Below, one piece after another: positions 2,946 through 20,419 of a stretch of 64,000 bases of DNA (position 1 is the first letter of the stretch; each line of letters opens with the position of its first letter). The position numbers and the translations under genes were made by a program. The DNA lies in the NCBI GenBank assembly GCA_034432855.1, contig DAOUBA010000058.1, positions 5,483 to 69,482 on the forward strand, written 5' to 3'. Under the pieces are notes generated by a model. The model saw only the letters and a program-made list of their open reading frames with translations, did not search any database and was not told the DNA's origin. This stretch comes from Anaerolineae bacterium (lineage in GTDB: Bacteria > Chloroflexota > Anaerolineae > B4-G1).

Positions 2946-5442
2946 TTTTGAGAGCGAGCGGTAGATAAACCCGAAAGATGTCTTTTACGACATAAAACAT
3001 TTTCGGTGGCGTCTCCGTGCCGTTCGGCGGCGGGGCCGGATCGTAAACCGTCACCGGGAAACTGCCCACCGTGCTCACGTCGGCGGCCCTGATGGTGGCC
3101 CTCAAGCGCGTGCTGCTGACAAAAGTGGTCGGACGGTCGCTGCCGTTCCAGCGCACCACGCTATTGGCCGTAAAGCCGGCGCCGTCCACGGTCAGAGTGA
3201 AATCGGCCGCCTCGTCCACGTCGAAAAAGGACGGGTTAATGCTCAACAACGTGAGCGGGGCCGGGCCGTTGTCCACCAGGATTTTGGACGTAAATGGCGC
3301 AAGGGTCAGGCTGCCGATCACGGTGTTTTGATCCAGGTCCAGATATTGCCGGTCGCCCAGGTTGATGACTATTGCCGTCTTGCTGGCGTTGTAAAATATC
3401 TTGCCGCGCGAGGGCTCGCCCTGAGGTTGGGTAAACCAGTTGGTCTTGGAGTGGGCCTCCAGGCCGCTGAACGCCTTCCAGCCGGAGAACGTGTAGCGCG
3501 TCCAGGAGGGGCCATAGGCGATGTGATTGTTCACGTAGGGGTGAAACAGGTAGTTATAGTCCGAGGACACCCAGTTGCTGAGACTGCGCGAGTATATCGT
3601 CCAGGCCTTGCTGTTCAGCCCAAAGAGGATGTTGTTGGCTACGGTCGCGCGGGTCTCGTCGCCACCCAGGCTGATGTGCGCGGCGTACTCGGTGCCGTAG
3701 GAGGCATTGTACACCGTATTGCCGACGATGGTGCCGGTCGAGCGCTGGTAGTTGATGCCGGTGATTGTCGTGCTGATGACGGTGTTGCCACGCGCCTCCA
3801 CATCACGGGAATAGTGGTCTACGTACAGCCCCATCCCAAAGGCCGCGCGCGAGGGATGACAGCCGTCCACGTTGCCGGGGATGTCCACGATGATGTTGTT
3901 GAGCAATCGGACGTTGTACACTTCGGTCGCCGAGAGGTTGTCGGTGCCGAACGTCCTGACGCCGCCGCAGTCGGCTTTGGAATAGCAGGACTGGGTGATG
4001 AAATTCTTTTCCAGCGTCGTGTCGTGGCCGAACACATCTACGCCGTTGTAGCCGATCCGCTCCAGACGATTGTAGCGCAGCGTGTTGCCATAGCCGGAAT
4101 CGCGTGGGTCATATGTCCTGATCCGAATTCCGTCGCCGTTCTCGGTGCACTCGTCGCTGGTCTGGCCGCAGCCCATGCCGGATTTGCCCAGATTCTGGAT
4201 GAGCGCGATGTTGCGGATGACATTATCCTCGAAGGTGGATTCGGCGAAATAGCCGGTGATGCCGAAATGGTTGGCCCCATCAATGAGGTTGTTCGTGAAC
4301 GTCATATGATGTCCACCGCGCAACCCCTTGCGACCGTCGGAGGGCCGCTCCAGCCAACTGCTCAGCCGGACGCCGGCGGAATTCACGTCGCGGATGGTGA
4401 CGTTGCGCACCGTGATGTGATGATAGATATCTCGGCTCATCCCGCCCGGCGTGCCGATGCCGTGATTGAACCAGTTCTTGATCTCGAGATTGTCAATGAT
4501 GATATAGGCGGTTTCCGAGCCGTCGCTGAGCATGATGCCCCCATCCCTGATCCGGTTGGGGTCGGGGTCGGTCGCGAACACCACCGACCCTTCGATGTTG
4601 GCCGGCGTGCCCGAGTCCGAATACAGGTAGACCCGCCGCGTTCCGGCGTCATAGTACCACTCGCCGTCCCGGTCCAGCGTGGCCAGATGGTTGTTGATGA
4701 AATACCCCCAGCCGATACAATCGCCCCAACTGGAGATCAGGCAGGACAATCCTTTGTTCAGCGTCAGCGTGGTGCCGCTGGAGCCGGTGACCTGGCGTTC
4801 GAGCATGGACCAGCGGATGTTCTTGATGTGCACGATGGCGCCGGTCCAGTTTATGCCGGACGGCAGTTCGTTGTCTACAATCTGGTTGCTGCCGGCGCTG
4901 TGGCTGTCCACGAACGAATAGCCGCCGTTGGCCGTGCCCAGGTTGGGCCAGCGGCCCAGCGTCAAGCGTTGACCATTGCGGAACAACTGGTTGATGCCCA
5001 GCGGGAACGCGCTCTCCGGCACGCTGGCCCAGTAGATTTTGCCCGAGTAGACGGCCCAGCCGGTGATCGGCAGCGAACCGGAGAGGATCGGTTTATTGGC
5101 GCATCCCGCCGGGTACGAGCCGAAAGTGATCGGGGCGTCTGCCGTGCCCGCCCATTTGATGACCAGTTGCTCGGCCCGCCAGGTGTCGCCGCACTTGAAC
5201 AGCACCCGGTCGCCGGGCTGGAGGTTCAGCGAGTTGATCTTGGCAATGGTCTTGAACGGCGTTGACTCGGACCGGCCGTTGTTGCTATCGCTGCCGCCCG
5301 AACTGGAGACGTAATAGGTCGTCCCGCCAGCCCGCACAGGCCGGACCGGCATGATGGCGGCGAGCAGGGCCAGCGAGATGACAAACCGGAGGGGAAATCC
5401 CAAAATAGAAAAAACGGTCTTGTTCATAGCCACCTCACGCAT
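2935..5442 (-). CDS. Secreted right-handed parallel beta-helix (pectate-lyase-fold) protein, 835 aa, with a C-terminal Ig/IPT-like domain and a ...FRVYLPLALKNGS tail
   Basis: Signal peptide (true start possibly MNKTVFSIL.. at 5427); N-cap GTTYYVSSSGGSDSNNGRSESTPFKTIAKI..LQPGDRVLF typical of beta-helix carbohydrate-active proteins; repeated NN[IL]I / G-rich beta-helix rungs; the C-terminal region VTVYDPAPPP...YVVKDIFRVYLPLALKNGS. Confidence 0.6.
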   Translation of the reverse strand: MREVAMNKTVFSILGFPLRFVISLALLAAIMPVRPVRAGGTTYYVSSSGGSDSNNGRSESTPFKTIAKINSLNLQPGDRVLFKCGDTWRAEQLVIKWAGTADAPITFGSYPAGCANKPILSGSLPITGWAVYSGKIYWASVPESAFPLGINQLFRNGQRLTLGRWPNLGTANGGYSFVDSHSAGSNQIVDNELPSGINWTGAIVHIKNIRWSMLERQVTGSSGTTLTLNKGLSCLISSWGDCIGWGYFINNHLATLDRDGEWYYDAGTRRVYLYSDSGTPANIEGSVVFATDPDPNRIRDGGIMLSDGSETAYIIIDNLEIKNWFNHGIGTPGGMSRDIYHHITVRNVTIRDVNSAGVRLSSWLERPSDGRKGLRGGHHMTFTNNLIDGANHFGITGYFAESTFEDNVIRNIALIQNLGKSGMGCGQTSDECTENGDGIRIRTYDPRDSGYGNTLRYNRLERIGYNGVDVFGHDTTLEKNFITQSCYSKADCGGVRTFGTDNLSATEVYNVRLLNNIIVDIPGNVDGCHPSRAAFGMGLYVDHYSRDVEARGNTVISTTITGINYQRSTGTIVGNTVYNASYGTEYAAHISLGGDETRATVANNILFGLNSKAWTIYSRSLSNWVSSDYNYLFHPYVNNHIAYGPSWTRYTFSGWKAFSGLEAHSKTNWFTQPQGEPSRGKIFYNASKTAIVINLGDRQYLDLDQNTVIGSLTLAPFTSKILVDNGPAPLTLLSINPSFFDVDEAADFTLTVDGAGFTANSVVRWNGSDRPTTFVSSTRLRATIRAADVSTVGSFPVTVYDPAPPPNGTETPPKMFYVVKDIFRVYLPLALKNGS

Positions 5443-10903: not shown

Positions 10904-12568
10904 ATGAAAGGACGCGGGTTGGTCGGCGCGTATGCGCGTGGGTTGTACCATGCATGTGGGGTGCGACAACCGGAAGGACGGCCGCTCATCGGGATCGCCA
11001 ACTCGTGGAACGAACTGGTCCCCGGCCACATTCATCTCCGCCAGGTGGCACAGGCGGTCAAAAGAGGTGTGCGGGCGGCCGGCGGTATCCCGCTCGAGTT
11101 CAACACGATTGGGCTGTGCGACGGCATCTGCCAGGGTGCGGGGATGCACGCCGTCTTGCCCAGCCGCGAGATCATCGCCGCCTCGGTCGAGTTGACGGCG
11201 CGGGCCTACGGATTCGACGCCATCGTCTGCCTGGCCTCGTGCGACAAGATCGTGCCGGGGATGTTGATGGCGGCGGCACGGCTCGACCTGCCGACCCTCT
11301 TTGTCAGCGGCGGGTTGATGGCCGAGGGGGAATGGGAGGGCAAACGGCTGGTGACCAGCGACATCAAAGAGGCCATCGGCCGCGCCCGCCGGGGTGAGAT
11401 CAACCGCCGCCAGTTGCACCAGATCGAGCGGGCGGCGTGTCCCGGCCCCGGCATCTGCAATATGATGGGCACCGCGAACACGATGTGTATGGCCCTGGAG
11501 GCGGCGGGGCTGAGCATGCCCGGCAATGCGACGATCCAGGCCACCGAACCCGCCTCGCGTCGGGTCAACCCCGCACTGCTGGACATGGCCCGCGCTGCAG
11601 GGCAGCATGCTGTAGCAAACATAGAGCGCGGAATCGCCTTTCGTCAGGTCGTGACCGCCGCGACGCTGCGCAACCTCATTGGCGTGGTGCAGGCAGTCGG
11701 CGGTTCGACCAACGTGGTGTTGCACCTGGCGGCGCTGGCGACGGAGCTGGGCCTGACGCTCGACCTGGACGAATGGGACCGCATTGGACGGCAAACGCCT
11801 TTGCTGGCGCGCTTCAAGCCGTCGTCGCCGCGCCCGGTCTCCGACCTTGGACGGGCGGGTGGTGTGCCGGCCCTGCTTAAACGGCTGGCCCCGCTTCTGG
11901 ACATGGACATCCCCACCGCTTTCGGCGGCACGCTGGCCGAGGTAGCGGCGCAAGCCGAGATCGCCGACCCCGAAATCATCCGCCCGTTGGACGACCCGTT
12001 GTCTCCCCTAGGGGGTATCGCCGTGCTGCGGGGCAACCTGGCGCCCGACGGCGCCGTGGTCAAGATGAGTGGGGTCTCGCCGGCGATGATGCGTCACGTG
12101 GGGCCGGCGCGGGTGTTCGACCGTGAGGAGGACGTGCAGGAATGTCTGCTGGGCGGGCGGGTCCGGCCGGGGGATGTGCTGGTCGTGCGCTACGAGGGGC
12201 CGCGCGGCGGGCCGGGGATGCGCGAACTGTCGCTGCCGGCGGCGATCATGGTCGGCATGGGGCTGGCGGACTCGGTGGCAATGGTCACCGACGGGCGGTT
12301 TTCCGGCGCGACACGCGGGCCGTGTATCGGGCACGTCTGCCCGGAGGCCGCCGTCGGCGGGCCGCTGGCCGCCCTGCGCGACGGCGACATCATAGAAATT
12401 GACATCCCGGCCCGCACGTTGAACGTCCGCCTGAGCGACGAGGAACTGCGGGCGCGTCTGCGCGACTGGGTGCCACCATCGAAAGAAATCCCGCCGGGAT
12501 TCCTGCGCCTCTATGCCCGTCACGTTGGTCCCGCCAGCCATGGAGCGGTACTCGGGCTGGGCGAGTAG
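10904..12568 (+). CDS. IlvD/EDD family dehydratase (dihydroxy-acid / sugar-acid dehydratase)
   Basis: The conserved motifs [17 protein letters not shown], ...[10 protein letters not shown]... (Fe-S ligands) and ...[21 protein letters not shown]... match the IlvD/EDD family. Confidence 0.85.
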
Positions 12569-12688
12569 GGCCGGGGTGTTCGTGTGCGTCCTGTGCCACG
12601 CATGGCAGATTTTGCTTGCGCACACCTATACCCGGCACGAGGGCTGGATAGACTCAGTGGGTCGGGTCACGTCGTAGCGGGGCATCTA

Positions 12689-14821
12689 CTACGCCGTGCG
12701 CGGCAGCGTGAGCGTGACGCGGGTTGAGACGCCGGGGACGCTATCTACCGTGAGAGTGCCCCCGACGACGGCCATCAGCGTGCTGTGGAGCGCCAACCCC
12801 TGGCCGCTTGTTTCGGACGGGCTGAAAGCCTGATCCACGCCTACTCCGTCGTCCTCAACGGTGAGTACAAGTCCGCCTGTCCTGGAATCCACCGCAGGAT
12901 CGCGCCAGGCAGCGGCAATGCGGAGATGGAGCGGTCGCTCCGTGTCCTGGCCGCGTCCGTGACGGGCAGCGTTGCGAATCGCCTCGCGCGCTGCGCAAAA
13001 GAGCACCTCTGCAATGACCGGAGGGAGCAGACGAGCCTCCCGTTCCGCCTGGGGTTCAATATCCCACGCCACCCGGTCGAAGGTCTGCCCGAATTCCTCC
13101 TCCACGGCGCGGCGCAGCGCGTCCACCAATCCCCAACGGGCAACCTCCGGCACGACCGCCGTGGGCATCTCGCGCAAGAGATCGGCAATCTGGCGATGGG
13201 CCTGGGTCAGCAGCGCGGCGACCTCCTCCGGCCGGCCGCTGTCCAACGTGAGCAGCGCGGCGTGCAGGCGCGGGAGGACGTCGTCGTGCAGCGTGCGACG
13301 GGCGCGGTGGTCGAGCACCCAACTGTGGGCCAGCCGCTCGCGCTGCAGGGCCATCAGGCGGCGGGCCATCTCGGCGCCGGCCTGCGCGTCAATCAGCCGC
13401 TCTCCACCGGCGCGGGCGATTTCGATCTCCTCCTGGGTGTACAGGCCACCGTCGCGCTTTTCCCCCAACAGCAACACCCCGATCAGACCCCGTTCGCTCC
13501 ACAGGGGCACGGCCCACACGGCGCCCGCGTACTGCGCCGGATCGAGCGGCACGCACATCGTCTGCGGCGAAGTGAATCGTCCGGCGAGATCGCCGAGCGA
13601 CGGCGGTTCGCCGCCGGGGTAGGCCAGTGGCGCGCCTGCAAGCGGAGCAAGCGGCCCCAGGGCGATGAGGTAGGCCACACGCGCCCCCAGCACATCCGCG
13701 CACAGCGCGCGGAAAGGCGTGGCCGCGTCAGCGTCAGACGACGCCGCTGAAGCGAGCAGGTGTTCGTACAGCCGCTGGCTGCCGATGAAGGGGCGCAGGT
13801 TCTCGATGCTGCGCTCACGCTCGGCAAAGGAGCGCCAGCCGAACAGCGCATAGAAGGCAATGATCAGCAGTGTGCTCAAGAGAAGGCTGTAGGCCGGGCG
13901 CAGGTGGATGGCCAGGCTCCAGCCGGTCAGCGCACTGTAACCGGCAGCGAGAATCACGGCGCTACGCCACTGGCGGAAAAATCCACGCCGTGGCAGCGCC
14001 TTGCCGGTGAAAATCTCATAGGAGACGACGCCCTGTCCCAGCAGGATGACCGCTAGGCCGATCAGCATGGCGGTGACGAGGTCGAACCAGGCGACGGCGA
14101 GGGCAATGTCAGCATAACCGATGCCGGTACGAGAGAGTGAACCGTAGCGGAAAGTCAGTGCGACCCATCCCATCACCAGCGCCACGAGCAGGCTGACGGC
14201 GAGCAGCGCGAGCGAGGAGGCGATCAGCCAGGGGCGGGCGCGGCGGCGGGCGAGATCGCCCATCACGCGGGCCGAGGGCCCCGGACGGCGCAGTGCATCG
14301 AGTGAGAGCGTGATACACAGAACGATGTAGATGGGGTAGACCACGAGCAGGAGCGGGACGCCGCCTACCGCCAGCGTTCCGGGAAGAACCAACGCCGTCA
14401 CCTGCCAGAAAGAGGGAAGCGCCCCCGCAGCAAGCATCCCCAAGAGGCCCAGGCCAAGGAGGAGCACCAGGGGGAGCCAGAACCGGTGCCGGCGACGGGG
14501 CAGGGTCTGTGCGCCATCCCAGAAACCAGCGTACCAGAGCATTGCCACGTACCAGGCCGGCGGTGAGAGGATCACCGGCACCCAGCCCACGCGCCACCAA
14601 AACTCGAGCCCCCTTCCCAGGTAGTCCAGGCCGCGCCCCAGGATGGCGGTGTGGCTGATGAAGAACACGCCGCCCATCAGCAACCCTCCACCCGCAAGCC
14701 AGACGCCCCAGGAACGACGTTCGGCGTTGAGGAGCACCGTCAGCCCCAACCAGAGCAGCAGGAAGGTGTTGAACAGCGAGACGGCCAGCCCAGCCCAGTC
14801 GAGGAAAAAATCGCCGGTCAT
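12689..14821 (-). CDS. Sensor histidine kinase: polytopic membrane N-terminus (about 10 TM), GAF-like domain, HisKA_3 (NarL-type) and HATPase_c
   Basis: H-box HDDVLPRLHAALLTL; ATPase motifs EAIRNAARHG...LVLTVEDDGVGV; extensive hydrophobic N-terminal half. Confidence 0.8.
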   Translation of the reverse strand: MTGDFFLDWAGLAVSLFNTFLLLWLGLTVLLNAERRSWGVWLAGGGLLMGGVFFISHTAILGRGLDYLGRGLEFWWRVGWVPVILSPPAWYVAMLWYAGFWDGAQTLPRRRHRFWLPLVLLLGLGLLGMLAAGALPSFWQVTALVLPGTLAVGGVPLLLVVYPIYIVLCITLSLDALRRPGPSARVMGDLARRRARPWLIASSLALLAVSLLVALVMGWVALTFRYGSLSRTGIGYADIALAVAWFDLVTAMLIGLAVILLGQGVVSYEIFTGKALPRRGFFRQWRSAVILAAGYSALTGWSLAIHLRPAYSLLLSTLLIIAFYALFGWRSFAERERSIENLRPFIGSQRLYEHLLASAASSDADAATPFRALCADVLGARVAYLIALGPLAPLAGAPLAYPGGEPPSLGDLAGRFTSPQTMCVPLDPAQYAGAVWAVPLWSERGLIGVLLLGEKRDGGLYTQEEIEIARAGGERLIDAQAGAEMARRLMALQRERLAHSWVLDHRARRTLHDDVLPRLHAALLTLDSGRPEEVAALLTQAHRQIADLLREMPTAVVPEVARWGLVDALRRAVEEEFGQTFDRVAWDIEPQAEREARLLPPVIAEVLFCAAREAIRNAARHGRGQDTERPLHLRIAAAWRDPAVDSRTGGLVLTVEDDGVGVDQAFSPSETSGQGLALHSTLMAVVGGTLTVDSVPGVSTRVTLTLPRTA

Positions 14822-14825
14822 TCGT

Positions 14826-15224
14826 CTACTTTACTCGCAACTCCTCCCATTCGCCACCCCGGTTGATCTGGCACTCCCACCGGTAACCATCCAGCCCTTC
14901 ATTGATTCTGGCGCAATGGATGGTCACGGTGTGGTTCTGCGCTTGTTCGATGTATTGGTGGCCGATTCTTTCGACGATGGCATCGGCCAGGTCAACGATG
15001 GCAGGTTCGGGGATTTCGGGTTCCGTGACCTTGCAGTGGAGCCATTCGGCCATTTGACAGGAAACCGTCCAGGCATCGGCGTTGGGGTTGCTTGCGTGGA
15101 TATAGTCCATCACGGCGTCGGCGGTGTTCTCCGAGAGATATATCTCCCGTGGCAGCCAACCGCACGCCAGAAGGAGAATCGCGAGCGTCGTACCCAATAT
15201 AAGAATTCTCCAGAAGGATTGCAT
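14826..15224 (-). CDS. Small Cys-rich lipoprotein (hypothetical) encoded between the response regulator and the histidine kinase
   Basis: Lipobox LLLAC-G after a hydrophobic leader; four further Cys; no recognisable family; 5 bp from the histidine-kinase start. Confidence 0.45.
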   Translation of the reverse strand: MQSFWRILILGTTLAILLLACGWLPREIYLSENTADAVMDYIHASNPNADAWTVSCQMAEWLHCKVTEPEIPEPAIVDLADAIVERIGHQYIEQAQNHTVTIHCARINEGLDGYRWECQINRGGEWEELRVK

Positions 15225-15230
15225 GTCTCC

Positions 15231-15968
15231 CTACAAATCCAATTCCACCCACTTGCCCGACGGGTCCGCCACGCGAGGGATACCGTCTTCGTCCCACAGG
15301 ATCAACTGGCGGCGGTGGTAGATGAGCGCCGCTCGCGTGCGCGCCACCTTGTCGTCCGTCGTGCTGCCGGCCAAACCCCAGGCGGCATAGATCTGCCCGT
15401 TGGTGCGGCTGACGGCGCGCGCATCCCGAAAGCCCAGTCGTGCGGCGATTTGCTCGTTGGTCAGCCCCTGCGCCAGCAATGCCACCACCTCGCGTTCGTT
15501 CGGCTCCAACAGCGCCAGCGGGTCATATTCGTCTTTGTAGCGCACCTCCTGCACCCGCGCCTCGATTTCCGGGTCAATGAAGGAGCGTCCGGCGACGGCG
15601 TCGCGCAGCAGGGGCACGATGCTCTCCGGCAGCAGATAGTTGCTCTTGCGGACGTAGGCATAATGGCTCAGGATGCCCGAGCGCAGGAAATCGCGGTAGT
15701 AGGCATCATCGTCCTGGATGGAGTAAAAGACGACCGGCAGGCGCGGATATTCGCGCCGCAAGGCGACGGCGGCCTGGATGCCGTTCATCTCCCCGGCCAG
15801 TTGCACATCCATCAACACCACGTCGGGCGGAACGGAAAGGCAACACGCGAGCGCCTTCTCGCCGTTGGCGGCCTCGCCCACCACCTGCACACTGCCAGTG
15901 GCCTCCAGCCCAATTTTGAGCGCGCGGCGCAGTGCGGCGTTGTCTTCCACCAGGAACGTCTTGAGCAT
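15231..15968 (-). CDS. NarL/LuxR family two-component response regulator with a roughly 60-aa C-terminal extension beyond the HTH
   Basis: Receiver domain MLKTFLVEDNAALRR...VVLMDVQLAGEMNGIQ..; LuxR HTH ...EREVVALLAQGLTNEQIAARLG...; start refined to MLKTF at 15968. Confidence 0.85.
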   Translation of the reverse strand: MLKTFLVEDNAALRRALKIGLEATGSVQVVGEAANGEKALACCLSVPPDVVLMDVQLAGEMNGIQAAVALRREYPRLPVVFYSIQDDDAYYRDFLRSGILSHYAYVRKSNYLLPESIVPLLRDAVAGRSFIDPEIEARVQEVRYKDEYDPLALLEPNEREVVALLAQGLTNEQIAARLGFRDARAVSRTNGQIYAAWGLAGSTTDDKVARTRAALIYHRRQLILWDEDGIPRVADPSGKWVELDL

Positions 15969-16015
15969 TGCGACCTCGGTGCAGCCCATAATTGTAACCG
16001 ATTTGCCCCCGCGCA

Positions 16016-16077
16016 TCAAGCACTCAAGTGCATGCAGGTCGAATTGCCAATTCGAACTGCGTCAAGCACTCAAGTGC
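16016..16077. promoter_or_regulatory. Two copies of a 16-bp direct repeat TCAAGCACTCAAGTGC (16016-16031, 16062-16077) in the divergent region between the response regulator and the small-protein/rSAM operon, a candidate regulator-binding site
   Basis: Read directly; each copy contains a GCAC-N4-GTGC mini-inverted repeat; the copies are 46 bp apart and lie upstream of the putative promoter at 16100-16129. Confidence 0.4.
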
Positions 16078-16099
16078 GCGGAATTGTGACATCGAGGCG

Positions 16100-16129
16100 T
16101 GGACTCAGTCTCGCCTCTTGCGGTAGAAT
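16100..16129 (+). promoter_or_regulatory. Putative promoter TGGACT-18 bp-TAGAAT for the small-membrane-protein/radical-SAM operon
   Basis: tggactcagtctcgcctcttgcggtagaat, 28 bp upstream of ATG 16157. Confidence 0.35.
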
Positions 16130-16156
16130 GGTCGTAGAACGAAGGAGCAAGCGCCT

Positions 16157-16342
16157 ATGATAGACACAATATTCAACCTGTGCATCTGGCTGTTGTACCG
16201 GCTGGCCGGCCTGCTCCACACAACTTACCAGGCGGTCAATGTATGGATTTTTGTGGTGATCTGGCCGTTGATCACCCTCGCCCTGATCGTAGCCGTGGTG
16301 GTGCAGCGGTCGGAGATTCGGCGACTGCGCGCCAGGAGGTGA
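16157..16342 (+). CDS. Small hydrophobic protein (61 aa, two predicted TM helices, basic C-tail), translationally coupled to the downstream radical SAM gene
   Basis: Strong RBS gaaggag 8 nt upstream of ATG; sequence MIDTIFNLCIWLLYRLAGLLHTTYQAVNVWIFVVIWPLITLALIVAVVVQRSEIRRLRARR; its stop lies 5 nt before the rSAM ATG. Confidence 0.5.
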   Translation: MIDTIFNLCIWLLYRLAGLLHTTYQAVNVWIFVVIWPLITLALIVAVVVQRSEIRRLRARR

Positions 16343-16347
16343 GCCCG

Positions 16348-17793
16348 ATGAAAGTCAAGATGATTCTGCCGGCGCTGACCGAGGCCAAAAGCCCGTATTG
16401 GCGCCCCATCAAGTACTCGCTCTTCCCGCCGTTGGGACTGGCGACGCTGGCGGGGTATCTCTCCGCGGACGACGAGGTCGTAATCCAGGATGAGCACGTC
16501 GAGACGCTGGGCCTGGACGACGAGCCGGACCTGGTTGCGATTGAGGTGTACATCACCTCGGCGCGACGCGCCTACGAACTGGCCGACCACTACCGGGCGC
16601 GGGGGGCGCACGTGGCGCTGGGCGGCCTGCACGTGACCGCACTGCCCGAGGAAGCCACCCGCCACGCCGATACGATCTTTCTCGGCCCCGGCGAGGACAC
16701 CTGGCCCGCCTTCCTGGCCGATTTGCGGGCGGGACGGCCGGGGCGGGTCTACCGCTCAACCGTGCGCTGCCTGGCGGGGATGCCACGCCCGCGCCGCGAT
16801 CTCATCAAGCGCCACCTCTATCTTGCGCCCAATTCGCTCGTCGTCTCGCGCGGCTGCCCGCACCACTGCGATTTCTGCTACAAGGATGCCTTCTTCGCGG
16901 GCGGCAAGTCGTTCTACACCCAGCCGCTGGACGAGGCGCTGGCGGAGATCGAATCGCTGCCGGGCCGCCACCTGTTTTTCCTCGATGATAACATCTTGGG
17001 CGACGCGCGTTTCGCAGCGGCTCTATTCGACGCGATGCGTGGGATGGGGCGGGTATGGCAGGCAGCGGGAACGGTGCAGGCTGTTCTCCAACCCGGCCTC
17101 CTGGAAAAGGCCGCGGCGAGCGGCCTGCGCAGCCTGTTCGTCGGCTTCGAGACGCTTCATCCGGGCAATCTGAAGGCGCAGCACAAGATGCATAATCTCA
17201 ACCGTGATTACCGCGTCGCCATCCGCCGTCTGCACGATCACGGGGTCATGGTCAACGCGAGTTTCGTCTTTGGGATGGACGAGGACAACGAGACGGTGTT
17301 CGACCGCACAGTGGAATGGGCGCTCGAGCAGGGCATCGAAACGGCGACGTTCCACATCCTCACCCCCTACCCCGGCACGGCGCTCTTTGCGAGGATGGAG
17401 GCCGAGGGGCGTATCACGACCTACGACTGGGACCTCTATGACACGCGCCACGTGGTCTTCCGTCCGGCCAGGATGTCGGCAGAGGCGCTGGAAGCAGGCT
17501 ACTGGCGCGCCTACGAGCAGTTCTACCGCTGGGGATCCATCTTCCGCGCAGCCTGGGTGCAAGGTACGTGGCGCGAGCGGCTACGCCATCTGGCCTATGC
17601 GGGGGGCTGGAAGAAATTCGAGCCGCTATGGGACGTGATCATCCGCGCCGGTCAGGTCTCGCGGTTTCTGCCGCTGTTGGAGAGGGTGCTGGATGGGGCA
17701 AGTTTGCAAGTAGGCAAGTTTGCAAGTATGCAAGCATGCAAGTATGCAGGTGGGCAGAGGTATGCAGGGTGGCAAACGGGGGTGCGTTTATGA
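16348..17793 (+). CDS. B12-binding radical SAM protein (class B rSAM with a DUF4070-type C-terminal region)
   Basis: N-terminal cobalamin-binding domain (..VVIQDEHVETLGLDDEPDLVAIEVYITSARRAYELA..); CxxxCxxC cluster SRGCPHHCDFCYKD; DUF4070-like C-terminus. RBS aggaggtgag. The last roughly 30 codons read through the 8-bp tandem repeats. Confidence 0.85.
   Translation: MKVKMILPALTEAKSPYWRPIKYSLFPPLGLATLAGYLSADDEVVIQDEHVETLGLDDEPDLVAIEVYITSARRAYELADHYRARGAHVALGGLHVTALPEEATRHADTIFLGPGEDTWPAFLADLRAGRPGRVYRSTVRCLAGMPRPRRDLIKRHLYLAPNSLVVSRGCPHHCDFCYKDAFFAGGKSFYTQPLDEALAEIESLPGRHLFFLDDNILGDARFAAALFDAMRGMGRVWQAAGTVQAVLQPGLLEKAAASGLRSLFVGFETLHPGNLKAQHKMHNLNRDYRVAIRRLHDHGVMVNASFVFGMDEDNETVFDRTVEWALEQGIETATFHILTPYPGTALFARMEAEGRITTYDWDLYDTRHVVFRPARMSAEALEAGYWRAYEQFYRWGSIFRAAWVQGTWRERLRHLAYAGGWKKFEPLWDVIIRAGQVSRFLPLLERVLDGASLQVGKFASMQACKYAGGQRYAGWQTGVRL
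17695..17775. repeat. Tandem 8-bp repeat array, GCAAGTNT x about 9-10, at the extreme 3' end of the rSAM ORF
   Basis: gcaagttt gcaagtag gcaagttt gcaagtat gcaagcat gcaagtat gcaggtgg ... read directly. The period is 8, not a multiple of 3. Confidence 0.6.
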
Positions 17794-17941
17794 AGTGGTC
17801 ATTGGGTAAACAGGCTGGTCTGGTGCAGGAGCCCTTGTGGGCGGAGGCGCAGAGGAGCGGGAGAGCAGGGTAGCCGGGGTGAGAGGGAGACAGGGGAGGG
17901 GTCAATACTCTCGTCGGCCAGAAATCGCAAAGGGGTACCCA

Positions 17942-18190
17942 TCAGGCCGGCTGTAACAGGATAGTTTCGTGAGCCAGTGTATCCGCAGCGTAAGCCAGGG
18001 CTGCTAGGATCTCGGCGTGGGTCGGGCGAGGATAGGCATCCAGCAAGTCGGCTTCGGTGGCCCCTTCACCAAGTTTCTGGATGATGAGTTCGACGGAGAT
18101 GCGCGTGCCGCGAATGACGGGCTTGCCCATCATCACGTCTGGGTTGATCTCGATGCGATCCGCCAGGGATAGCGCGCTGATTAGCGACAT
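17942..18190 (-). CDS. DUF433 domain protein (antitoxin-like small DNA-binding protein), orphan
   Basis: MSLISALSLADRIEINPDVMMGKPVIRGTRISVELIIQKLGEGATEADLLDAYPRPTHAEILAALAYA matches the DUF433 pattern (GKPVI.GTRI.V..I). RBS gagg; no DUF5615/PIN partner downstream. Confidence 0.7.
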   Translation of the reverse strand: MSLISALSLADRIEINPDVMMGKPVIRGTRISVELIIQKLGEGATEADLLDAYPRPTHAEILAALAYAADTLAHETILLQPA

Positions 18191-18233
18191 CTCAACCTCC
18201 CTCGTTATCTGCAGGCGATTGTAACACACTTCG

Positions 18234-18488
18234 CTATAGACTGTCAAGACCGAGGCGGCAGTGGAGTTCATAGCCGTCCCGCTGAGGGGGCAGCCCCAGC
18301 ACCCGGACCGTCCCCCGGTCGGGGCGGCGCAGCCCCTCCACGCACTCAATGGTGGTGGTCTTCCCGGCGCCGTTGGGGCCGACCATGCCGAAAATCTCCC
18401 CCTCCTCCACGGTGAAGGAGACGCCGTCCACAGCGCGCACCGGCCCGTAGGATTTATGCAGGCCGTTGACCTCTATCGCGATGCTCAT
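18234..18488 (-). pseudogene. Truncated ABC transporter ATP-binding protein (N-terminal 84 aa only)
   Basis: Walker A GPNGAGKTT within MSIAIEVNGLHKSYGPVRAVDGVSFTVEEGEIFGMVGPNGAGKTTTIECVEGL.., but the ORF stops after about 80 aa with no Q-loop, signature or Walker B. Confidence 0.6.
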
Positions 18489-18492
18489 TGGC

Positions 18493-18663
18493 TCACTCCT
18501 GTAGAAATGTCAGCGCGAGGGCCAGCAGGCCGATCCCCAGCAGCAGGACCATCGTCCCCACATCCGCCGCGCCCAGGATGTGAAGAATAACCACCGCCAC
18601 ACCCATTGCCAGGGCCAGCGCCCTGAGGATCAGAGTGACCATTTTGTCGATCTTACTGCTCAT
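18493..18663 (-). CDS. Small membrane protein (56 aa, two TM)
   Basis: MSSKIDKMVTLILRALALAMGVAVVILHILGAADVGTMVLLLGIGLLALALTFLQE; RBS agggagg; overlaps the stop of the upstream regulator gene. Confidence 0.45.
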   Translation of the reverse strand: MSSKIDKMVTLILRALALAMGVAVVILHILGAADVGTMVLLLGIGLLALALTFLQE

Positions 18664-18967
18664 GCGTGCCTCCCTGTCTGGGATACAGGATATTTTCCAA
18701 TGCGTCCATATAGGCCGCAAACGCCGCCCGCCCCTCCGGGGTGGCCCACACCCACGTTTTGGGGCGCCGGCCGACGAAGGTCTTTTCCACCCGCACATAG
18801 CCTGCCTCTTCCAGCCGCTGTAGGTGCACGCTGAGGTTGCCGTCGGTCAGGCCCAGCAGGTCCCGCAGAAAGGTAAAGTCAGCCCGGTCGCCTTCATCCA
18901 GGCCGACCAGCGCGGCCATAATGCGCAGCCGGGTTGGCTGATGGATGACAGGGTCCAATTCCGGCAT
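18653..18967 (-). CDS. Winged-helix transcriptional regulator (PadR/ArsR-like)
   Basis: MPELDPVIHQPTRLRIMAALVGL..DFTFLRDLLGLTDGNLSVHLQRLEEAGYVRVEKTFVGRRPKTWVWATPEGRAAF is a wHTH with a wing; RBS gggaggtg; start refined from the ORF track. Confidence 0.6.
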   Translation of the reverse strand: MPELDPVIHQPTRLRIMAALVGLDEGDRADFTFLRDLLGLTDGNLSVHLQRLEEAGYVRVEKTFVGRRPKTWVWATPEGRAAFAAYMDALENILYPRQGGTHEQ

Positions 18968-18968
18968 G

Positions 18969-19307
18969 TCACCTCCCATACCGGAGGGCCCGGAGGCCGC
19001 CGCCGATGAGGGCCCCGCCGCCCAGGAGCGCGACACCCAGGTTGAAATACCCTGGCAACCACGTCGCCAGCGCCACGGCCAGCAGGCCGATGAAGAGCCC
19101 GATGATGCTGATGCTCCAGTGGGTGAAGAGGCCGAATTGGACGTAGCCCAGCGCGATGGTCAGGACGATGAGCAGGGCAAGGTGGAGCCCGCTGGTGTAG
19201 AGTTGTAACTTCCAGATGAGCACGCCGTCAAAGGCCGCCAGGGCCAGCCAGTAGAGGAGAAGAGACGACCAGAGGCTGGAGGATTTCGTCCGCGCCCGCT
19301 GGGCCAT
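18969..19307 (-). CDS. Membrane protein (112 aa, 3-4 TM), first gene of the regulator operon
   Basis: Hydrophobic sequence with a Gly-rich C-terminus; its stop is 1 nt from the regulator start. Confidence 0.45.
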   Translation of the reverse strand: MAQRARTKSSSLWSSLLLYWLALAAFDGVLIWKLQLYTSGLHLALLIVLTIALGYVQFGLFTHWSISIIGLFIGLLAVALATWLPGYFNLGVALLGGGALIGGGLRALRYGR

Positions 19308-19563
19308 CCGAATGCCCAGATAGATGCTGCCCAGGATGCCGAGGGTGTTGAGGGGCGCCCAGAGCCAGTTGATGGTCTGCTACCGCGTTTCTGCACGATT
19401 TGCGGCTGGGCGGGGTGGGGAGGCATTGCACTGCTGCTGGTGATTGCCCACATTTGCGGCACTTCTACCCGAGGGAGGGACTTTCGGAGGGGCGAGCGCT
19501 TCGCGCCCGCCCCTCCGATTTCTTCTTTCTCTGGACATGTGGGTAATCCCAGTGCGTTTGACC

Positions 19564-19606
19564 TTGACAAATCAAAGGGATCGGTGTATAATGTTGTTAT
19601 AACAAG
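19564..19606 (+). promoter_or_regulatory. Consensus sigma70-like promoter TTGACA(19564-19569)-17-TATAAT(19587-19592), immediately followed by the palindrome TTGTTATAACAA (19595-19606), a GntR/HutC-type operator candidate
   Basis: ccttgacaaatcaaagggatcggtgtataatgttgttataacaagac read directly; the palindrome GT-TATA-AC fits the GntR-family GT-N-AC operator architecture; 46 bp upstream of the gntR-like gene. Confidence 0.55.
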
Positions 19607-19651
19607 ACTACAGGATTACAGGATATTGACATATCAGGCGCGAGGAGCATT

Positions 19652-20419
19652 ATGGTTGATCGCGTTGAGATTGCTAACGTCGGAGCCATAAGCAAAGACA
19701 GCCCTATTCCCCTCTATTTTCAGCTCAAGGAACTCTTGCGGCAGGAGATGGAAAGTGGACGCTGGCTGCCAGGACAGCAAATTCCTTCCGAACCGGAGTT
19801 GTGCGAAGCCTTCGGCGTGAGCCGTACGGTTGTGCGTCAGGCGCTAAGAGAGTTGGAGTATCAGGGGCTGCTATATCGTGAGCAAGGCAAGGGCACTTTT
19901 GTAGCACAGCCCAAGATCAGCGAGAGCCTGATGCAAGACCTGTCTGGCTTCTACGAGGATACGGTGTCCAAAGGACTCGCGCCGGTCACGCAGGTGTTAA
20001 GGCAAGAGGTTCAACCAGCCTCTAAGAAAATCGCCGACTATCTCCAGATCGAGCCCGGTGACAAAGTTATTGTGATCGAGCGTCTGCGCTCTGTGGGCAG
20101 CGAGCCTATTGTGTTGGTGACGACCTACCTTCCTTATGACTTGTGTCCCGATCTCGTCAACGAGGACCTGAGCACTCAATCCCTTTATGCTCTGTTGGAG
20201 GGCAAATATGGCCTGTTGCTTTCTCACGGTCGGCGGACAATCGAGGCTGTGGCAGCAAATCAGTACGAGGCTGAGCACTTGCACATCAAGGTAGGATCGC
20301 CACTTGTTCTGCTGAACAGCGTTAGCTATCTGAAGGATGGTCGCCCTATTGAGTACTTCCATGCAGTACACCGTGGCGACCGAAGCCGATTTGAGGTGGA
20401 GGTCGTCCGCAAACGGTAG
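19652..20419 (+). CDS. GntR family (HutC/UTRA subfamily) transcriptional regulator
   Basis: N-terminal HTH PLYFQLKELLRQEMESGRWLPGQQIPSEPELCEAFGVSRTVVRQALRELEYQGLLYREQGKGTFV plus a C-terminal UTRA effector domain. Confidence 0.85.
   Translation: MVDRVEIANVGAISKDSPIPLYFQLKELLRQEMESGRWLPGQQIPSEPELCEAFGVSRTVVRQALRELEYQGLLYREQGKGTFVAQPKISESLMQDLSGFYEDTVSKGLAPVTQVLRQEVQPASKKIADYLQIEPGDKVIVIERLRSVGSEPIVLVTTYLPYDLCPDLVNEDLSTQSLYALLEGKYGLLLSHGRRTIEAVAANQYEAEHLHIKVGSPLVLLNSVSYLKDGRPIEYFHAVHRGDRSRFEVEVVRKR

Follow-up and report, generated by a model that had tools for sequence, protein, structure and literature searches.

Comparison of a locus in a 64,000-nucleotide stretch of an Anaerolineae bacterium genome (Chloroflexota; GenBank assembly GCA_034432855.1, contig DAOUBA010000058.1, positions 5,483 to 69,482; hereafter the window) with related loci points to what is probably a conserved Chloroflexota regulon, in which a sensor kinase and a response regulator control a divergently transcribed, orphan radical S-adenosylmethionine (SAM) enzyme with a B12-binding domain. 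As a type of system, it joins a divergent operon of standard two-component design to a class-B-type radical-SAM enzyme; the novelty lies in this particular combination and in the orphan, pan-phylum orthogroup to which the enzyme belongs. The locus had been singled out in an earlier reading of the same DNA (the original prediction), and the open reading frame (ORF) list and the sequence bear out its layout, with all five genes, both repeats and the promoter at the places given for them:

12689-14821, minus strand: histidine kinase (710 aa; ORF list)
14826-15224, minus strand: 132-aa ORF with a lipobox-like LLAC, lineage-specific (ORF list)
15231-15968, minus strand: response regulator, NarL/LuxR-like (245 aa; ORF list)
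15991-16019, minus strand: promoter-like site of the regulator operon, TTGATG-17-TACAAT (consensus scan)
16016-16031, no strand assigned: distal operator copy TCAAGCACTCAAGTGC, containing GCACT-N2-AGTGC
16062-16077, no strand assigned: proximal operator copy TCAAGCACTCAAGTGC, ending 22 nt upstream of the -35 hexamer
16100-16129, plus strand: promoter of the small-protein/radical-SAM operon, TGGACT-18-TAGAAT (scan)
16157-16342, plus strand: 61-aa membrane protein with two helices, its gene placed for translational coupling to that of the enzyme
16348-17793, plus strand: class-B-type radical-SAM enzyme (481 aa; B12-binding-like domain, CxxxCxxC core and helical C-terminal domain)

The kinase and regulator accompany the enzyme well beyond the window. 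Related loci comprised 80 species-representative enzyme loci (one genome per species) and metagenome loci, with 88 loci in the regulator count. By tblastn, 28 of the 80 species loci have regulator (65-82% identical) and kinase (36-64% identical) orthologs next to the enzyme in divergent orientation, with kinase orthologs adjoining the enzyme in approximately 27 loci, and both genes also lie beside it in four metagenome loci (L081, L082, L086 and L088). Altogether, a divergent regulator and kinase adjoin the enzyme in 33 of the 88 loci, all of Chloroflexota type, and in 31 of these 33 the stretch that separates the regulator gene from the start of the enzyme operon holds a palindromic operator, GTCAAGCAC-N4-GTGC. 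The two-component system is thus a dedicated, conserved neighbour, as expected of the private sensory system originally proposed, and this co-conservation makes it very likely that the system controls the enzyme operon through the operator. The Chloroflexota version of the system offers a defined sensor, regulator, operator and promoter, and with them an experimental handle on an orphan enzyme family.

The 64-kb window holds exactly two copies of the 15-mer CAAGCACTCAAGTGC, at 16017 and 16063 (expected number by chance, 0.09; two copies in 0 of 100 shuffles), and a T before each copy completes the 16-mer that had been described as a pair of direct repeats 46 bp apart, start to start. The repeats are real copies of the conserved operator, with the correction that each holds an inverted repeat, GCACT-N2-AGTGC. 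Of the 73 exact GCACNNNNGTGC matches in 1.18 Mb, 46 fall in the short zones that separate the regulator gene from the enzyme operon. The operator is oriented: its GTCAAG flank faces the regulator gene, 37-70 nt before the regulator start in most loci, and reads TTGAC on the other strand, the -35 element of the regulator promoter. In the window, the -35 of TTGATG-17-TACAAT overlaps the left flank of the distal copy, and an ATTGTA/TGTAGC element is conserved together with the GTCAAG flank in three relatives (L081, L082 and L002). On the enzyme side, a consensus scan recovered the TGGACT-18-TAGAAT promoter that had been predicted; a GAGGCGTGGAC...TAGAAT/TAAAAT promoter is conserved in L081, L082, L002 and L084, and the operator ends 22 nt upstream of the -35 in the window and in its closest relatives, L081 and L082. 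One operator serves both promoters in most loci; the window and L081 carry two copies, so that each promoter has its own. In L004, L021 and L088, whose operons have additional genes ahead of the enzyme, the operator stands in front of the first of these genes, and it is retained upstream of the enzyme in four loci that lack an adjacent regulator (L006, L012, L048 and L084); it was not found upstream of the stand-alone small-protein gene in L083. The inferred leader of the enzyme operon is approximately 20 nt, and an Rfam scan of window positions 12000-20000 returned no riboswitch or other RNA family at E <= 0.1. A further copy was observed in a metagenome-assembled genome of the Abditibacteriaceae (L020), where a perfect GCACTCAAGTGC lies approximately 160 nt upstream of the enzyme, with genes resembling the 254-aa accessory membrane proteins described below (TM254) downstream; either the regulated operon was transferred horizontally or the contig was mis-binned.

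We envisage that the phosphorylated regulator would bind the palindrome as a dimer, that the operator, with its centre estimated near -64, would fit a class I activator of the enzyme operon, and that the GTCAAG flank, doubling as the -35 of the regulator promoter, would provide autoregulation. Judging from the position of the site, control is probably by activation rather than repression: the operator sits at a fixed 22 nt upstream of the enzyme-promoter -35, without overlapping it; the -35 itself (TGGACT or TGGACG) matches the consensus poorly, as is typical of activator-dependent promoters; and insertions of genes leave the site in front of whichever gene comes first in the enzyme operon. 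On the other side, binding of the regulator at the operator is deduced solely from their co-conservation, and, on the opposite strand, the -35 of the regulator promoter itself overlaps the operator, so repression is possible. In that case the palindrome would mainly serve negative autoregulation or repression, or would be the site of another factor, and the enzyme operon would be repressed, constitutive or controlled elsewhere. The single site for both promoters in most loci and the persistence of the operator where no regulator is adjacent speak for such an arrangement, which we nevertheless regard as unlikely given the placement of the site and the character of the enzyme promoter.

The regulator and kinase are recognizable as a two-component pair, with several features of their own. 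The regulator has a Response_reg domain (57.3 bits) with the phospho-acceptor Asp in DVQLA, and NCBIfam NarL-type models align to residues 3-182 with scores below their cut-offs, as does GerE over 24 residues (20.7 bits against a cut-off of 23.5). The extension of roughly 60 aa after its helix-turn-helix in the original prediction turned out to be mostly the second half of the LuxR/GerE domain, which is divergent from the models and conserved within the orthogroup; what survives of the claim is a C-terminal tail of approximately 25 aa (LI-WDE-G...W), conserved along with an atypical linker in an alignment of 29 orthologs. The kinase comprises a membrane region (residues ~1-330) with approximately 8-10 hydrophobic helices by hydropathy and in an AlphaFold2 model, a GAF-like region (~367-480; 19.3 bits, below the Pfam cut-off of 22.4), a HisKA_3-like H-box RTLHDDVLPRLH (~510-521) and a HATPase_c domain (611-709; 38.2 bits). 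Its H-box-like LHDDVLPRLH is nearly invariant, with no Pfam HisKA_3 match at E <= 0.01. No Pfam family covers the membrane and GAF-like sensor, although identity across the sensor half is 60-84% among the 120 best-scoring of 2,479 matching proteins. The model of the whole kinase is poor (predicted local distance difference test score (pLDDT) 64, predicted template-modelling score 0.48), with the GAF-like region at a pLDDT of approximately 80; sensor structure was set aside as a clue to the signal, as Foldseek returned weak GAF matches and generic seven-transmembrane-helix noise.

The closest likeness in logic is to DesK/DesR-des of Bacillus subtilis, a membrane-state-sensing two-component system that controls a lipid desaturase. 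Shared elements are a kinase with a HisKA_3-like H-box and an essentially transmembrane sensor, a NarL/LuxR-like regulator and an inverted repeat just upstream of the -35 of an adjacent modifying-enzyme gene; by analogy, the membrane-embedded kinase in the window would adjust a lipid-modifying enzyme. In contrast to DesK/DesR-des, however, the target in the window is a radical-SAM enzyme with a B12-binding domain rather than a desaturase, the kinase has approximately 8-10 helices and a GAF-like domain, and there is no sequence kinship beyond the family level. LiaSR/VraSR-type envelope stress systems likewise pair a NarL-family regulator with a membrane-embedded kinase, and a VanZ-like protein (L004), MacB/FtsX permeases (Blastocatellia, L089) and CreD occur near enzyme orthologs or accessory genes; LiaF and LiaI homologs are absent, however, and the likeness is thematic only.

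Between the regulator and kinase genes (gaps of 6 and 4 nt, respectively) lies the 132-aa ORF, previously described as a Cys-rich lipoprotein. It does encode five cysteines, one of them (Cys21) in a lipobox-like LLAC, and an N-terminal hydrophobic segment at residues 7-25, with an uncertain start (the public gene call is 123 aa); as a member of the conserved system, however, it did not hold up, with no match in Pfam or NCBIfam and no tblastn homolog in any related locus. The corresponding slot elsewhere is empty or holds unrelated genes (for p168, DUF1361, p174 and p400-type membrane proteins), of which p168 and p174 were compared as possible counterparts and found to be unrelated.

B12-domain radical-SAM enzymes carry out difficult reactions on unactivated carbons, and most of their thousands of members have no known function. 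Homologs align with the window enzyme from its first residue onwards, which settles its start (MKVKMILP). The N-terminal domain that defines class B is present (B12-binding, PF02310, residues 26-122; 43.8 bits against a cut-off of 32.1), as are the superfamily hallmarks (Radical_SAM, PF04055; 45.1 bits against 29.5; CPHHCDFC at residues 170-177), with C170, C174 and C177 invariant across 23 homologs; DUF4070 is a borderline Pfam match (22.2 bits against 22). Homolog alignments stop near residue 450, where the conserved part of the enzyme ends. The non-conserved C-terminal tail beyond it (residues ~451-481) corresponds to an 8-nt tandem repeat, GCAAGTAT, present in 6.4 copies at window positions 17698-17748; in related loci, genes for membrane proteins of 220-285 aa follow the enzyme where the window has this repeat, which may mark a deletion or rearrangement junction.

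The enzyme belongs to an orthogroup that is both widespread and tightly conserved. A protein search returned at least 8,000 matches, the best 120 of which are 74-88% identical and come from Anaerolineae or Chloroflexota wherever named, and more than 586 relatives emerged when one genome per species was scanned, the top 80 of them (67-81% identity) representing Chloroflexota, Blastocatellia and other Acidobacteriota, Cyanobacteria, Gemmatimonadota, Actinomycetota and Abditibacteriaceae. With a 62%-identical copy on a plasmid of Chondrinema litorale, the orthogroup extends to at least seven phyla (Chloroflexota, Acidobacteriota, Cyanobacteria, Gemmatimonadota, Actinomycetota, Abditibacteriota and Bacteroidota), at pairwise identities of 62-95% (63-95%, mean 74%, over 450 columns). 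The distance tree is star-like, with cyanobacteria, Blastocatellia, Gemmatimonadota and Ktedonobacterales each clustering, a pattern that fits slow evolution better than wholesale transfer in the recent past. When sequences are clustered at 50%, a single full-length representative stands for the whole group, and the next relatives (35-50% identical) likewise have no assignment.

The check on family membership proposed with the original prediction placed the enzyme in no characterised clade. All 16 NCBIfam matches fall far below the curated cut-offs (38-71 bits against 360-650; the best are HpnJ, 71.3 against 577.6, BchE, 70.8 against 481, and HpnR, 65.1 against 650), none of ten relatives at 36-66% identity reaches any of these cut-offs, and a PADLOC match was weak and uninformative. 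The enzyme shares a three-part architecture and a weak DUF4070 match with HpnP/HpnR (the hopanoid C-2/C-3 methylases), HpnJ, BchE, GrsA/B and ladderane-type radical-SAM enzymes, but differs from them in scoring far below their cut-offs, in forming its own tight orthogroup and in having no gene context for hopanoids, chlorophyll or ladderanes. Among PDB sequences, only weak matches to AprD4 (6FD2, E = 7e-09) and MgmA (9CCB, E = 4e-07) were found. In the AlphaFold2 model, residues 1-136 form an alpha/beta domain with high pLDDT, and the nearest structures are AprD4, MgmA, TsrM, CysS, TokK and MiaB. AprD4, a radical-SAM 1,2-diol dehydratase, and MgmA, which C-methylates a glutamine of methyl-coenzyme M reductase, are of similar length (~450 aa) and are the nearest solved structures in both sequence and fold (template-modelling scores of 0.64-0.67 and 0.55-0.62, respectively), but they are only 17-20% identical to the enzyme, and the locus has no aminoglycoside or methanogenesis context. 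As AprD4 and MgmA differ in the reactions that they catalyse, the chemistry of the window enzyme cannot be predicted from the match; the modelled structural neighbours confirm its fold class only.

Literature on B12-dependent radical-SAM enzymes in Chloroflexi and Acidobacteria, DUF4070, branched glycerol dialkyl glycerol tetraether (brGDGT) lipids and Solibacter yielded nothing on this family. Among individual leads, a B12-binding protein linked to pre-PcyA is not a radical-SAM enzyme, Mss has a different taxonomic distribution and SwfC (585 aa) belongs to a polyketide synthase context; heliorhodopsin-linked kinases and a 2026 review of lipid radical-SAM enzymes were also set aside.

On genomic context, we tentatively propose that the substrate is membrane-embedded or lipid-like, and that the enzyme would perform on it a conditionally needed radical modification, most likely C-methylation. 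This theme draws on five observations: the accessory genes in Anaerolineae operons all encode integral membrane proteins; MacB-type permeases (in Blastocatellia) or CreD (in Chondrinema) adjoin the ortholog; a paralog with 38% identity is encoded in overlap with the stop of a fatty acid desaturase gene and is clustered with a PAP2 phosphatase; the enzymes most similar by hidden Markov model (HMM) have hopanoids, a tetrapyrrole or ladderane lipids as their substrates; and the kinase sensor is almost wholly membrane-embedded. Several findings weigh against this part of our account. The enzyme has no hydrophobic segment by hydropathy; in cyanobacteria and many Chloroflexota loci it stands alone, without a membrane-protein neighbour; its model, at a pLDDT of 76, is of only moderate confidence; and the closest solved structure, AprD4, is a sugar diol dehydratase. 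Because AprD4 has the same domain and is not known to use cobalamin, neither cobalamin use nor methyl transfer by the window enzyme is assured. A conserved macromolecular substrate could just as well account for the mean identity of 74% across phyla.

These points lend themselves to another possible explanation, in which the enzyme would still be under two-component control, but its substrate would be a small soluble molecule, a cofactor or a macromolecule such as a protein or RNA, and the membrane neighbours would be unrelated passengers or would transport a substrate or product. A highly constrained substrate would suit an orthogroup that stays at 62-95% identity across at least seven phyla and reduces to one representative at 50% clustering, and the structural neighbours act on a sugar (AprD4), a protein glutamine (MgmA), tryptophan (TsrM) and tRNA (MiaB). 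Cyanobacterial copies have no conserved neighbours at all, and ten Acidobacteriota loci have a soluble one, UPF0047/YjbQ. It is harder to reconcile such a substrate with the recurrence of four unrelated integral-membrane families in Anaerolineae operons, the MacB-type permeases and CreD next to the enzyme in other phyla, the overlap between paralog and desaturase gene, and the lack of conserved candidate genes for a soluble pathway nearby.

A more specific form of the lipid-like proposal casts the enzyme as a radical modifier of the alkyl chains of bacterial membrane lipids, such as a mid-chain C-methylase, whose expression is set by a membrane-state-sensing kinase. We consider this improbable; if true, it would make the enzyme a candidate for adding the extra methyls of iso-diabolic-acid and brGDGT lipids, because it occurs in Blastocatellia, Bryobacterales, Vicinamibacterales and Anaerolineae, and known distributions of iso-diabolic-acid and brGDGT lipids link them to these taxa. 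These methyl groups underlie widely used soil palaeothermometers.

The 61-aa protein encoded ahead of the enzyme was originally read as a two-helix membrane protein rather than a precursor peptide, and the comparisons agree. It has two hydrophobic segments and 24 invariant columns among four copies, and because a profile of these copies matches 278 protein clusters (57-89 aa, E <= 0.01), the small ORF is a real gene. The enzyme ATG lies 5 nt after the small-ORF TGA, and both plus-strand genes have the strong ribosome-binding sites attributed to them (AAGGAG 9 nt before the small-ORF ATG; AGGAGG 8 nt before the enzyme ATG, within the final codons of the small ORF). The proposed partnership was partly sustained, in that the protein is linked to the enzyme in the window's own sub-lineage without being a general or dedicated partner. 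In 7 of the 10 small-protein contexts examined, the gene is next to the enzyme, either upstream (the window, L002, L081 and L084/85; 5-nt gap or 4-nt overlap) or downstream (L082, L086/87 and L088, where it overlaps or just follows the enzyme stop), and the retention of linkage despite this change in gene order argues for a functional tie in the window's sub-lineage. The proposed wider linkage to such enzymes was not found: an HMM search recovered the small protein in only 1 of the 80 species-representative enzyme loci, and it also occurs without the enzyme, near TGT/FmrO/ThrRS genes (L083 and L090). In a further locus (L089, positions 5001-5210), a relative approximately 60% identical lies between the ATPase and FtsX/MacB permease genes of an ABC transporter, overlapping both, with no radical-SAM gene near it, an arrangement that suggests a general membrane-complex subunit.

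The juxtaposition of a small ORF with a B12-domain radical-SAM enzyme, so placed as to permit translational coupling, recalls ribosomally synthesized and post-translationally modified peptide (RiPP) systems, in which the 61-aa protein would be the precursor modified by the enzyme, and two further details fit: weak NCBIfam similarity of the enzyme to the RiPP enzymes ApyD and rSAM_ocin_1, and the relative located between an ABC transporter ATPase and permease. We consider a RiPP-like system very improbable, however. Maturase and precursor do not co-occur as expected, since the enzyme is 62-95% identical in 79 loci without a small-protein homolog, and the small protein is found by itself beside housekeeping genes. 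Its conservation is concentrated in the two hydrophobic helices (W30, F32, W36-P37 and TLAL) and its basic tail varies, the opposite of a conserved leader and variable core; in addition, no protease or RiPP-recognition element was seen, and Pfam detects no SPASM domain in the enzyme. The small protein is instead a lineage-restricted, somewhat promiscuous membrane subunit, and neither the substrate of the enzyme nor its defining partner.

It is also one of several interchangeable integral membrane proteins encoded in Anaerolineae enzyme operons. The recurrent accessory genes of these regulated operons all encode integral membrane proteins without Pfam families: the small protein with two transmembrane segments, TM230 (220-236 aa, 8 loci) and TM254/285 (254-285 aa, 8 loci); a DUF2809/VanZ-like membrane protein occurs once, in L004. 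None of the larger accessory proteins (TM230, TM254/285 or DUF2809/VanZ-like) is encoded in the window. An Ldi-like gene in L088 was found in that locus only and was not used as evidence.

In other phyla, the enzyme keeps different company. In Blastocatellia, the ortholog follows genes for a membrane protein, an HTH_34 regulator, UPF0047/YjbQ and, often, two MacB-type permeases; on the Chondrinema plasmid, it follows a membrane protein, an HTH_34 regulator and CreD; and in Actinomycetota, the protein encoded just upstream appears TetR-like by sequence. This succession of local regulators from phylum to phylum (two-component system, HTH_34, TetR) suggests that conditional expression is part of the biology of the enzyme. 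UPF0047/YjbQ lies upstream of the enzyme, directly or within a few kilobases, in ten Acidobacteriota-type loci (L007, L013, L017-L019, L043, L071, L075, L076 and L078), with its stop overlapping the enzyme start in L043, L071 and L078, and the pairing may be informative for both families.

Distant paralogs were observed in a Citrobacter portucalensis plasmid (L092; NZ_CP134684.1, 11072-22458), where five B12-binding-type radical-SAM enzymes, approximately 38% identical to the window enzyme, are encoded together. It is one of these, at 38% identity, that overlaps the stop of the fatty acid desaturase gene; the cluster also holds the PAP2 phosphatase, an N-acetyltransferase and a GH3-family enzyme, and looks like a lipid or natural-product pathway. 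The plasmid is mobilizable and of the IncF type.

Downstream of the enzyme in the window, two further groups of minus-strand genes were noted. At 18493-19307, approximately 0.9 kb away and converging on the enzyme, is a cluster that encodes an HTH_34 winged-helix regulator (18653-19036, 97.8 bits) together with two membrane proteins, of 112 and 101 aa. Regulators of this family, with a membrane protein ahead of them, also lie just upstream of the enzyme in six Acidobacteriota-type loci and on the Chondrinema plasmid, and the cluster in the window could be due to chance or could be a remnant of an older regulatory arrangement. Nearer the enzyme, positions 17942-18488 encode a DUF433 protein and an 84-aa fragment that matches the N terminus only of an ABC transporter ATPase and is probably a gene remnant.

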